Of a stretch of 64,000 bases of DNA, positions 2,377 through 7,716 are shown in pieces. The stretch is taken from NCBI GenBank assembly GCA_963931255.1, contig OZ006972.1:1204421-1268420 (forward strand), written 5' to 3'. Numbering within the stretch: position 1 is the stretch's first letter; every line of letters starts with the position of its first letter. The position numbers and the translations under genes are program-made. The notes beneath the pieces were generated by a model. The model made no database searches, was not told the DNA's origin, and worked only from the letters and a program-made list of their open reading frames with translations. Source of the DNA: Candidatus Gastranaerophilales bacterium. GTDB taxonomy: Bacteria; Cyanobacteriota; Vampirovibrionia; Gastranaerophilales; Gastranaerophilaceae.

Positions 2377-5300
2377 ATGGAATTCAAAAGTATATCAGAA
2401 TTAAGAGCTGAATACAGAGATAATCCGGATTACGCAATTGAAAGTGTAATTCCGGATATGGTTGCTGAAATGCAGTCTGATTCCCAATATGCAGGTTATA
2501 CTGAAGAACAGCTTACCCTTATTGCTAAAGCTAAATTGAATACTTTAAACGGTTTGGTGCTTAATACAGCCTTTACTCAATATATCCCGGACAATGGTCT
2601 TCCTACAGGTACAAAGTGGAATGAATACAGCTATGAAGAAATTCTTGCAATGGAACAAAACGGAGTTGTTATCCCGAAAGAATTTACAGATTGGGCTCAC
2701 TCTATGCAAGATGGTGATGCTACAAATTATGTAATTGATGAAAGCGAACTGAACAACTCAAATTCTCTTGAAGAAGTTGATCAAGCAACAGAAAATTCTC
2801 AAGACGCAATGACTGCAAAAGCAATTGCTTATGCTAAAAAGTGCCAACAGCAAGAAGAAAAACTTAACGATGCAGTAATTGATTTGGCACCTAAAAAAGA
2901 TAAAGCAGAGCAAATCCAAAATCAGGCAAAAACAGAACAAGAAAACGGTATGAAACAGCTTACCGAGATGGCAAAACGCTGGAATGAACTTGATAAAAAA
3001 CTTCAAAACGGCGAAGAGCTTACAGATTTGGAAAAAAGCGAATATGCTCAGTTAAACAAAAGTCTTAACGGTGCAAATGCTGATTTACGCAGACAAATGA
3101 CTGAAACAGCAGATAGCCTTGACGCTATTGTTGTTTCAATGGACGGTATTTCAAAAGATATTGAATCTAATACAGATTTAAGTGCTGAAACAATTGAACT
3201 GGCAAACACTCTTGCGGGTGTTCAAAAAGGTTATAACCAGACAAGTGTTCCAGGTAAAATGACATTTATGGCAATCGGCGAAATTGCTAATATGATTTAT
3301 GGTGCTAAAGGTAAATCAGTTGCAAGAGATACCGTTGATGCCGGTGTTGATTTACAGGAACTTTCTAACGAAACTCAGGTAGAAATTAATAAGAATACCT
3401 CATTATATGAATTTGCACTTGAATATGGTACAAATCTTAATGACCAGTTAAGTGAAGTTGAAAGACTTCTTGGTGAAAATCCTAATAAAGACGACCGCAC
3501 AGCTGCAACAAAAGCAGAAAACAAAGCAGGTGAAAAAGCTGAAAACAATGCAATGGCAGCAGCAGAAGAATCAACAGAAAATCTGCTTCCGGCAGAACCT
3601 GAAACTGATGTTACAACAGGAACTCCGGATAAGAGCGTAAGCGACAAAGCTTCTGCTAATATGGCTCCTGCTACTCCTGTTGAAAATAAAGCTGCAGCCG
3701 TTCAAACTTCTCAAGCTGCACCAGTTGAAGTACAAGGTGCACAGGAAGAAGAAAAATCACAATCATCTTCTGCATCTCCATCAAAAGGCGGTCAGGATGC
3801 CGAAGAATCTCTTGATGATCAAGGTGAAAACGCAACTGAAGATTCAAGAAGTACTACACCAAAAGTTGAATCCAGAGGTGTTGAAGCTGAAACTGAAACA
3901 AAAACAGCAGAAAAAACTCAAAAAGATGCTAAAAAACAAAATAAAGAAATCGTTGCAGAAGAAAAACAAGTTAATAAAAAATCAAAACAAGTTAACGCTG
4001 ACTTGAAAAATAACAATGCACAAAGCGCAACTTTGAGTGATGAAGTATCAAACGAAACAGAAGCAATGGCAGAAGTTGCAGCTGTAAACCCGGAAGAAGC
4101 CCAAACAAGAGCAGAATCTATTTCAATCGCAGGCGGCAAAATTACAGCACTCGGACAAGACAGCGGCAAAAAAGCTACAGAATTTACAGAAGAAACAACT
4201 GAACTTGAAGAAGATTCAGAAAAAGCACAAAAACAAAACGAAAAAGCTCAAAAATATAACAGCAAAGTTGAAAAAGCAATTTCTGTAATTGATCAAATTG
4301 CTGCTGTCGGTTTACAAAAAGGTATGAGCACTATCGGTACCGGTGCAGTTATGACACTCCAAGGTCAAGGTATGATAGCTGCAGGTACAGCATTGCTTTC
4401 AAATCCATTCACAGCTGCTATGGGTACAGCTTTAGTTACAGCAGGTACTACAACTACCAATATCGGTGTCGGCGCTATGAATGTTGGCGGCATCCTCTCT
4501 ACAGCAAGCTTCTATACACTTGCTGCAACTAAAGTTACAAAAATGACAATTGCAGCCTGCAATGGTGATTTGAAAGGTGTATTTAAAAACTTAGGTGCAT
4601 TTGCTACAGTTTGTGCAACATCTGTTGCTAGCTGCGCAGCTACAATGGCAGTCGGTGCAGCTACAATGGGCGTCGCAGGTCCTGTAGGAACCGCTATTGC
4701 ATCACAAGCTGCTGCGATACCTTTTGATGTTATTGGCGGTGTTGCTAATATGAATCTTTCTAACGACAATCTTAAATCTGATGATAATGATGATATTAAA
4801 GCAGAAGTTGCTCAAAAAGTTGAAAAGAAAGCAAATACAAAATCAATTTCTACACAAGCTTCACCTGCAGTTCAAAATGAAGAACAACCTGTACAAACTT
4901 CTATAAATTCTGCACAGCCTGTCTCTGCACAATCTGTAGCAGGAACAGTTCAACCGAATGCTCAACAAACAGCTGCTTTATCAGCTCCTGTAGCTCAAAA
5001 TGTTGATAATGCAGAAGAAACAACTTCTGATGAAGCTTCTGAAGAACAAACCGCAGAAGAAGAACAAGAACAGGAATTAAATTCAGCTCAACAAGCACGT
5101 GCAGACATGCTTGATTCAGGTGCAAGCAAACGCGATGTAGCAAAAGCTATGACAAACAAAAGTTCTGAACTTGAAAAACAAACAAAACCTGCTATTATAG
5201 CTTCTGCTCTAAATTCTGCAAAAGCTGAATCAATTGCAGAATCTGCTAACGGTGTTGCTGAAATGACAGTTGCTTTCACTAAATCAATGAGAAAAGAATA

Positions 5301-7716: not shown

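Follow-up and report, generated by a model that had tools for sequence, protein, structure and literature searches.

What kind of repeated module builds a 1779-residue bacterial protein that matches no family in the databases, and what might that module do for the cell? The question is raised by a giant open reading frame (ORF) in a 64,000-nucleotide stretch of a Candidatus Gastranaerophilales genome (assembly GCA_963931255.1, contig OZ006972.1, positions 1,204,421 to 1,268,420), the whole of which is referred to here as the window. Gastranaerophilales are uncultured, non-photosynthetic relatives of the cyanobacteria that live in animal guts, and to our knowledge almost nothing is known of their cell biology. 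Scans of the whole ORF against Pfam, NCBIfam and PHROGs returned no match, and none of its 42 homologs (1242–2503 amino acids, aa) carries a Pfam domain or a name. An earlier note on the window, made from the DNA letters alone, proposed that the ORF contains an ancient internal duplication of a module composed of a Lys/Glu-rich (K/E) coiled coil and a hydrophobic block of small residues. The duplication is confirmed by the analysis described here, in which the module appears as a K/E-rich stalk helix running into a domain of about 117 residues that lies outside every curated family. Homologous proteins are designated below by P numbers and genomic loci by L numbers.

Two Paralogous Copies of One Module

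The protein can be divided into a head, a first X domain (X1), a linker, a first module (Y1), a linker, a second X domain (X2), a linker, a second module (Y2), a Q/A-rich region and a basic tail. Y1 and Y2 correspond to copies A and B of the earlier note (nucleotides 3895–4752, equal to aa 507–792, and nucleotides 6298–7251, equal to aa 1308–1625). BLASTP with composition-based statistics aligns aa 588–746 with aa 1457–1615 without gaps, 63 of 159 positions being identical (40%, E = 1e-22). The Smith-Waterman score of the full regions is 327, as compared with 91–104 (standard deviation 12–14) when copy B is shuffled within blocks of 10, 20 or 40 residues so that its local composition is kept (z = 15–20). 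Against the same kind of shuffles, the small-residue core alone reaches z = 10–16, and the K/E-rich part upstream of it scores 113 versus 63 ± 8 (z = 6), a value reached by none of 500 shuffles. A gapped alignment of aa 487–763 to aa 1287–1633 is collinear (score 359) and includes the landmarks KDAKK, SIAGGKI/DISGGKV and EKAQK..EK.QK.N.K..KA in the order in which they had been listed before. At the DNA level, the ungapped alignment (477 nucleotides) is 53% identical overall and 43% identical at third codon positions, which agrees with the divergence noted earlier by eye. Y1 and Y2 are thus paralogous copies of one module. A chance alignment of two low-complexity stretches is refuted: the regions are strongly biased, and alanine, glycine and threonine make up about half of the core, but the similarity far exceeds that of composition-matched shuffled sequence (z = 10–20), the comparison by which the earlier note had wished its claim to be judged, it survives composition-corrected BLASTP, and the same columns are kept in 204 copies from other proteins.

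Two smaller elements of the proposed repeat were not upheld. The two occurrences of NIGVG, listed as a shared motif, lie exactly seven residues apart in the ungapped alignment and do not occupy homologous positions, an offset that is explained by the internal heptad periodicity of the domain. The hexapeptide EEQPVQ (aa 835 and 1190), regarded as a second short repeat, is attributable to chance, since 35% of block-shuffled versions of the protein contain a repeated 6-mer; its two sites lie in non-equivalent linkers, and the second is missing in orthologs such as P0004. A tandem-repeat scan of nucleotides 2000–8000 returned only short, low-scoring arrays inside the ORF.

The Glycine-Heptad Domain

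The defining feature of the module, a glycine heptad, was overlooked in the earlier note, as was a second duplication, that of X1 and X2. In an alignment of 16 cores, invariant or near-invariant glycines recur at 7-residue spacing. Among 204 non-redundant copies, the glycine frequency is 0.87–0.98 at profile columns 16, 23, 30 and 37 and again at columns 50, 57, 64 and 71, and 0.71 at column 78; each heptad has Leu at +3 and Ile or Leu at +4, and the turn columns 43–46 are occupied by N (0.49), P (0.67), F (0.47) and T (0.75). The autocorrelation of the glycine frequency is 0.70 at lag 7, which none of 5000 column permutations reached, 0.47 at lag 14 and −0.20 at lag 4. In sequential order, the domain comprises four G-x-x-L-[IL]-x-x heptads, the turn N-P-[F/W]-T, four to five similar heptads, a cap and a further small-residue helix. 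Across the family, the cap reads [VIL]-[AT]-K-x-x-[IV]-x-x-[A/T/S/C]-[NQ]-G-[ND]-[IL]. When single sequences are subjected to Fourier analysis of their glycine positions, copy A shows no significant period (p ~0.5) and copy B a weak one (p = 0.03); the periodicity is visible only as conservation across homologs.

The domain is rare and extends beyond the giant proteins. Searching 1.84 billion representative proteins with a profile of the core gave 178 matches at E ≤ 1e-3 and 67 at E ≤ 1e-10; the profile was restricted to the core, since inclusion of the K/E stalk in an iterated profile had led to drift towards other coiled coils. Among 146 representative matches, 72 lack the head and X domains, and the profile search that the earlier note had suggested did find the module outside this protein family. 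One such group consists of proteins of 264–305 aa with one hairpin and, as judged by eye, signal-peptide-like N-termini (P0131, P0145, P0148, P0155, P0158, P0167, P0168 and P0183), and another of proteins of 396–831 aa with Q/G/Y-rich N-termini. In short homologs, the arms read G-E-S-[LM]-K-S-R, and a single apolar residue per heptad fits a coiled coil but not a β strand. The genomic contexts of the stand-alone hairpin proteins are mostly short contigs or genes without annotation. On two unrelated contigs, P0183 (L049 3797–8840) and P0131 (L044 1814–6903) adjoin the same four unannotated genes, encoding proteins of approximately 800, 120, 185 and 230 aa, and the hairpin gene and its four neighbours may form a conserved system.

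A Pfam scan of 19 module sequences at E ≤ 1 listed 53 families, all of them sub-threshold and attributable to coiled-coil or membrane noise, and PDB searches with the sequence and two profiles gave nothing below E 0.05. A tblastn search with the Y2 core gave no match among 50,697 phage records and 72,556 plasmid records, a word-indexed search with the core alignment recovered one fragment only, and literature searches on coiled-coil proteins of Gastranaerophilales and on glycine heptads or helical hairpins found nothing relevant.

Predicted Structure and Relation to Known Folds

An AlphaFold2 model of copy B, computed from 19 aligned sequences, is all-helical, with helices at model residues 15–115 and 122–170 that are connected by the loop C-T-P-W-T at residues 116–121. 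Stalk and first arm together form the first helix, and the predicted local distance difference test (pLDDT) is best at the turn (73–83). The Y2 model and a model of head and X1, built from a 14-sequence alignment, together predict a helical structure for the whole protein. In such a structure, the heptad would place Gly at one core position and Leu or Ile at the next two. Tight antiparallel packing of the arms is expected from these core positions, and the arms would form a very tight helical hairpin with Gly against Gly, similar to an Alacoil. Antiparallel coiled coils of this class are said to have been described by Gernert and colleagues in 1995 in a ROP and a ferritin type. Alacoils have a small residue at every seventh position of both antiparallel helices, which permits close packing, and the same spacing is present here in the sequence of both arms (G-x-x-L-[IL]-x-x), the helix-loop-helix arrangement itself being model-based. 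The domain differs from them in its use of glycine instead of alanine, in its fixed N-P-[F/W]-T tip, in its conserved cap and, within the giant proteins, in its apolar surface. The Alacoil is a structural motif and not a homologous family, and no sequence test applies to the comparison.

Neither model gave a Foldseek match at E 0.001 or better in the PDB, nor did the Y model in BFVD. The top PDB matches of the Y model are pore or pre-pore forms of the toxins MakA (7p3r), SmhB (7a0g) and AhlB (6grj and 6h2f), with E values of 0.26–0.9 and TM-scores of 0.34–0.44, and the same toxins recur among the matches of the head-X1 model. The toxins of the ClyA family (AhlB, SmhB, MakA and ClyA) share with the module a long helical stalk that ends in a marginally hydrophobic helical hairpin. 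They show no sequence or profile similarity to it, the Foldseek E values being 0.26 or higher, and we know of no ClyA-family toxin that carries a glycine heptad. These toxins are secreted proteins of 300–400 aa encoded in toxin operons, whereas the protein studied here is an acidic protein of 1779 aa that lacks a signal peptide and is encoded at a housekeeping locus.

Periodic glycines on one face of a helix, which allow tight packing in or at membranes, are also found in transmembrane glycine zippers (GxxxGxxxG), but the spacing here is 7 and not 4 (lag 7 +0.70, lag 4 −0.20, in place of glycines at i, i+4 and i+8), and no glycine-zipper Pfam family is matched at E ≤ 1. Phage tape-measure proteins are likewise very long and helical with weakly hydrophobic, G/A-rich segments, and a few of them occur among the non-significant BFVD matches. 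The giant protein, however, has no PHROGs or Pfam match and no tblastn match in the 50,697 phage records, phage genes are absent around the ORF, and its synteny with chromosomal housekeeping genes is kept in 32 of 41 genomes.

A β-roll repeat of the kind that forms the heads of YadA-type trimeric autotransporter adhesins would also place small residues every 7 or 14 positions, and the core profile weakly matches two multi-repeat YadA_head proteins, P0153 (E 1.4e-32 to YadA_head) and P0164. These cross-matches are likely due to the 7-residue period of small residues that both share. A β-roll is nevertheless very improbable, as no member of the module alignment matches YadA_head at E ≤ 1, AlphaFold predicts helices, and the core continues straight from the long K/E helix. 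The period is 7 rather than 14 (0.70 versus 0.47), the apolar residues stand at +3 and +4 without an alternating pattern, and the giant protein has neither the signal peptide nor the membrane-anchor domain of a trimeric autotransporter. The domain is new as a family, yet a variant of known structural solutions, namely tight small-residue helical hairpins and amphitropic hairpin anchors.

Age of the Duplication and the Clade-Restricted Cysteine

The string TIAAC.G.L.GV, which is kept in both copies, had been taken to mark a specific structural or functional site. The motif as such is real and corresponds to the family-wide cap, but its cysteine is confined to one clade: in the window's clade, 54 of the 55 copies, A and B alike, have the Cys of TIAAC[NQ]G, whereas none of the 149 copies elsewhere carries it and A, T, S or N is found instead. 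By this distribution, the Cys position is a small-residue position and not a functional residue of the family as a whole.

The same comparison dates the duplication. The derived states T-K-x-T-I-A-A-C, G-V and a second Cys at column 113 occur in both copies of the clade and are missing in the other 149, and copies A and B of the clade are sisters in a neighbour-joining tree. The pairwise identities of the two window copies (WIN-A and WIN-B) and the P0028 module are 36–40%, and the tree alone is not decisive. On the strength of the shared derived states together with the sister placement, the duplication is most likely to have occurred in the ancestor of the window's clade, once this had split from other Gastranaerophilales, and to have started from a module that already had the cap. 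It would accordingly be younger than the family and predate the separation from P0027, whose identity to the query is 53% over the covered half. The duplication that the earlier note called ancient is therefore old enough for the DNA of the copies to have diverged, but it does not date back to the origin of the family. Independent duplications of the module have taken place elsewhere: P0031 and P0032 each contain a near-identical pair, and the two modules of P0038 are sisters.

The X Domains and Architectural Variants

A second duplication concerns the domains that precede the modules. In a HMMER search, the X1 profile (aa 133–360) matches aa 907–1072 of the same protein with E = 1.8e-41, and hhalign aligns the X1 profile with that of the middle domain over 188 columns (probability 99.5%, E = 1e-22). 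X1 and X2 are thus homologous, and the protein has the form head-[X-Y]x2-basic tail. An X profile from which module matches had been removed can also be aligned with that of Y, the alignment covering stalk, arm, turn and arm (probability 93.6%, E = 2e-7). Such a match hints at X as a degenerate and far older relative of Y, with the reservation that coiled-coil composition may inflate the score.

The arrangement of both domain types varies between lineages, in which X-X-Y, X-Y-X-Y, X-Y-X-X-Y, X-X-Y-Y and X-Y-Y are found. In some species the gene at the same locus encodes only the head and X1 (445–492 aa), with mutL directly after it (L023 9755–11137, and also P0196–P0208), and one such head-X1 protein is present on 69 contigs. 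The Y modules and the linkers are accordingly accessory parts. The head itself contains W81, E88, M92, G96, I99, P100 and A107 as invariant residues in two alignments.

Distribution and Divergence of the Giant Protein

Scanning one genome per species with the conserved N-terminal motif identified 41 loci, most of them in genomes labelled Candidatus Gastranaerophilales, Gastranaerophilaceae, Melainabacteria or Cyanobacteria and a few in genomes with unrelated labels. By this distribution the family is restricted to Gastranaerophilales. Four bins labelled Muribaculaceae, Brachyspira or Clostridium (L038, L027, L029 and L041) also encode the giant-protein family, and the first of them (L038) contains the full conserved neighbourhood at 58–85% identity; these labels are likely the result of mis-binning or mislabelling.

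The neighbouring genes are 65–98% identical between loci, whereas the giant protein falls to 25–34% over partial alignments and varies in length between 460 and 2939 aa. Among members of the window's clade, identity is highest in the cores (71–100%) and the tail (65–100%) and lowest in the linkers (8–60%, apart from a few mosaic segments), and this pattern points to purifying selection on the cores and the tail. Most of the long homologs inspected end in tails related to that of the window protein, for example VLHLSNMKKGKSLIRKIK.RR..YGY, while the end of P0028 differs. Comparison with P0002, P0015, P0022 and P0027 shows a mosaic of identity. P0002 is 98–100% identical to the window protein over aa 1–506 and 47% identical in linker 2, and in P0015 identity amounts to 100% for the Y2 core and the Q/A-rich region but to 77% for the head. 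These mosaics suggest recombination between alleles at the locus.

A Possible C-Terminal Membrane Anchor

The small-residue block had been described as hydrophobic, but only its small-residue character is borne out, while its hydrophobicity is marginal. By crude scales, the window protein contains a single 19-residue window with a Kyte-Doolittle value of at least 1.6 (1.64, aa 741–759), and every predicted insertion energy is positive, at +2.4 or higher. Overall, hairpin regions have Kyte-Doolittle values of 1.2–2.1 and predicted insertion energies of +0.6 to +7 kcal/mol, and segments of P0033, P0034 and P0036 reach Kyte-Doolittle 1.9–2.1. The hairpin regions of the giant family carry a net charge of 0 to +2 over approximately 120 residues, and their exposed positions are apolar or small. 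The 40 residues that precede the core of the last module are basic and carry +5 to +10 (in the window protein, P0028, P0029, P0033, P0037 and P0039), as compared with an average of −1.7 per 40 residues in the whole proteins.

The protein is probably of cytoplasmic origin, as its conserved N-terminus lacks a signal peptide and its gene stands alone between predicted terminators and has housekeeping neighbours with no secretion genes nearby. We propose, with a confidence of about an even chance, that its last hairpin anchors the very acidic protein to the cytoplasmic membrane, a function that is inferred from charge, surface and predicted fold. The outer face of the hairpin, made up of A, T, S, V and I in the giant proteins, would provide a marginally hydrophobic, amphitropic surface, with which the hairpins would dip into or lie on the membrane. 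Y2, located between a +11 stalk and a +9 tail, would hold the acidic, helical and disordered remainder of the protein by its C-terminal end, and its basic flanks fit the positive-inside rule. Y1, with its acidic flanks, may serve as a second, weaker contact or as a self-association site, and the primary function would be carried by the conserved head-X part.

Membrane-anchored polar landmark or tether proteins such as HubP/FimV and TipN are comparable in kind, being large, acidic, coiled-coil proteins with disordered linkers that evolve fast. The giant protein is likewise large, very acidic, rich in coiled coil, disordered and fast-evolving, its membrane anchoring being the proposed element. 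It shares no LysM, FimV C-terminal or other domain with these proteins, and its proposed anchor is a C-terminal hairpin and not an N-terminal transmembrane helix.

Several observations weigh against a membrane anchor. On the crude scales applied, every segment falls short of the hydrophobicity of a transmembrane helix, and the hairpin could be a purely soluble packing unit; the acidic flanks of Y1 do not fit insertion from the cytoplasm. The copy B model is weak (mean pLDDT 59, predicted template modelling score 0.39, 19 sequences), and the helical hairpin is a prediction. The single-hairpin homologs with signal-peptide-like N-termini suggest that the domain also works outside the cytoplasm, while the extreme divergence and mosaicism of the giant protein would be expected of an exposed or antagonistic protein more than of an internal scaffold. 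The existence of genes at the same locus that encode only head and X1 further implies that the Y modules are dispensable for the core function. Finally, searches of family, structure and sequence databases found no experimentally studied or annotated relative.

Could the protein instead be a soluble cytoskeletal or scaffold protein, in which the hairpins are Alacoil-like packing units that bundle or polymerise the coiled coil and the acidic linkers are spacers, without any contact to a membrane? The uniformly positive insertion energies and the helical prediction for the whole protein are compatible with this, as are the short homologs P0104 and P0117, whose arms keep the same glycine heptad and are filled with K, E, Q and S and thus clearly soluble. 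Coiled-coil scaffolds also commonly evolve fast in their linkers. A soluble hairpin would nevertheless not readily account for exposed positions that are apolar or small and nearly uncharged in an otherwise strongly charged protein, for the basic flanks around the last module or for the more hydrophobic segments of P0033, P0034 and P0036, and a scaffold of this kind is considered rather unlikely.

Of similarly low probability is an exported membrane-attacking protein, comparable to an α-pore-forming toxin or a translocator (the ClyA-family head, type III translocators), which would stay soluble until it meets the membrane of a host, competitor or prey and then insert as a helical hairpin, possibly as an oligomer. 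The pore forms of MakA, SmhB and AhlB are the best Foldseek matches and recur for the head-X1 model, but all of them have E values above 0.001, and a match between long helical hairpins is trivial; not even at E = 1 is there a ClyA or HBL Pfam match, and the sequence and profile searches of the PDB were empty. Marginal hydrophobicity is what an amphitropic toxin needs, and the low identity in comparison with the neighbours, the length range, the mosaicism between strains and the small homologs with signal-peptide-like N-termini would all suit a secreted, antagonistic protein. Against this stand the size of the protein and its net charge of about −80, unlike those of known α-pore-forming toxins, the absence of a signal peptide, and a locus whose housekeeping neighbourhood is inherited vertically. 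The giant gene does not adjoin any gene for a secretion system, a chaperone or immunity, and in place of a toxin operon it is surrounded by genes for a thioredoxin, an exonuclease, a pentapeptide-repeat protein and response regulators.

A bolder and still more doubtful proposal regards the N-P-[F/W]-T hairpin as a new membrane-active domain and the product of the giant gene as the chief interaction protein, exposed or exported, of Gastranaerophilales in the human gut. The protein would leave the cell without a signal peptide and insert its hairpins into membranes other than its own, be they those of the host, of competitors or phage-related ones, and its diversification under selection would resemble that of a surface antigen. 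Anchoring of the protein to the bacterium's own cytoplasmic membrane through the last hairpin remains the preferred reading, at the strength given above.

The Locus and Its Neighbours

The features of the giant gene and its immediate surroundings are listed in Table 1. A thioredoxin gene and an exonuclease gene accompany it in 32 of the 41 loci, the thioredoxin gene mostly lying 100–190 nucleotides upstream on the same strand. The imperfect palindrome behind the thioredoxin terminator and the TAAAGT box found next to its counterparts may represent an operator that overlaps the promoter. The hairpin behind the stop codon looks like a bidirectional terminator shared with the convergent pentapeptide-repeat gene, and the giant gene would thus stand alone, as a monocistronic unit, between two predicted terminators.

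Table 1. Coordinates of the giant ORF, its parts and adjacent elements in the window.
Feature	Residues	Nucleotides	Strand	Description
Terminator hairpin after thioredoxin		2258–2273 + T run	+	Stem covaries across 15 loci
Imperfect palindrome GTATAC-TTA-TGTAAAC		2282–2297	+	Most clades have GTTACA-N3-TGTAAC, then TAAAGT, at the same place
Giant ORF		2377–7716	+	1779 aa; net charge about −80; no N-terminal signal peptide
Head	1–130	2377–2766	+	Family signature W..[FY][ST]YEEIL.ME..GV.IP.E...WAHSMQD
X1	133–360	2773–3456	+	Predicted helical bundle domain; first X-repeat copy; AlphaFold pLDDT 85–92 over aa 150–280
Linker 1	361–506	3457–3894	+	Acidic, low-complexity; net charge −17; 40–99% identity to clade orthologs
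Y1 stalk (copy A of the earlier note)	507–633	3895–4275	+	K/E-rich helix; KDAKK, SIAGGKI, EKAQKQNEKAQK; net charge −5
Y1 core	634–750	4276–4626	+	Predicted glycine-heptad hairpin, then cap motif KVTKMTIAACNGDLKGV; clade identity 71–97%
Y1 hairpin turn	N676-P677-F678-T679	4402–4413	+	Profile columns 43–46
Y1 extension	751–792	4627–4752	+	With the end of the core (aa 741–759), the sole 19-residue segment with Kyte-Doolittle ≥1.6
Linker 2	793–906	4753–5094	+	Acidic, Q/A/S-rich; EEQPVQ at nucleotide 4879; most variable region, clade identity 8–47%
X2 (middle domain)	907–1133	5095–5775	+	Second X-repeat copy; domain family-wide
Linker 3	1134–1307	5776–6297	+	Net charge −21; second EEQPVQ at nucleotide 5944
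Y2 stalk (copy B of the earlier note)	1308–1502	6298–6882	+	K/E helix; A/S/P-rich insert, aa 1376–1440; basic helix, aa 1441–1502 (net +11)
Y2 core	1503–1619	6883–7233	+	Predicted glycine-heptad hairpin, then cap motif KLTKITIAACQGNLMGV; clade identity 78–100%
Y2 hairpin turn	T1545-P1546-W1547-T1548	7009–7020	+	AlphaFold loop at model residues 116–121
Q/A/M-rich helical region	1620–1742	7234–7602	+	Clade identity 27–100%
Basic C-terminal tail and stop codon	1743–1779	7603–7716	+	Net +9; ends ...LHLTDRKRTARVIKAINRRKGSSQYGRQGR; clade identity 65–100%
Hairpin, 17 bp, T runs on both strands		7722–7760		Directly after the stop codon; between the convergent giant and pentapeptide-repeat genes
Pentapeptide-repeat gene		7774–8304	−	Convergent with the giant gene

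The window is otherwise an ordinary stretch of chromosome that encodes a thioredoxin, a DEDDh exonuclease, an MFS transporter, TyrRS, CysRS, MurJ, SpoIID, a phosphoglucomutase, a TolC-like protein and c-di-GMP enzymes. Downstream of the giant gene, signalling genes are clustered at nucleotides 8347–12920, where two response regulators of the LuxR type, a TPR protein and a GAF-HD-GYP protein are encoded, and these four genes are syntenic with the giant gene in 15 loci. A GAF-GGDEF-HD-GYP protein is encoded at nucleotides 61038–62942, and an ORF of 588 aa on the minus strand (23418–25184) has no Pfam match at E ≤ 1e-5. Rfam and tRNA scans of the window returned nothing.

Implications for Gastranaerophilales

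The locus encodes, at a fixed chromosomal position, the most variable large protein of Gastranaerophilales, which contains two domain types that no database describes. Its hairpin domain follows a simple sequence rule, is rare (178 clusters in 1.84 billion) and also occurs alone in small proteins, which makes it a candidate for a new Pfam family; the small stand-alone forms render the hairpin tractable for structural and membrane-binding work. If the hairpin is membrane-active, it would represent a new way of keeping a membrane-inserting segment soluble and would provide a pointer to how these bacteria meet their surroundings.

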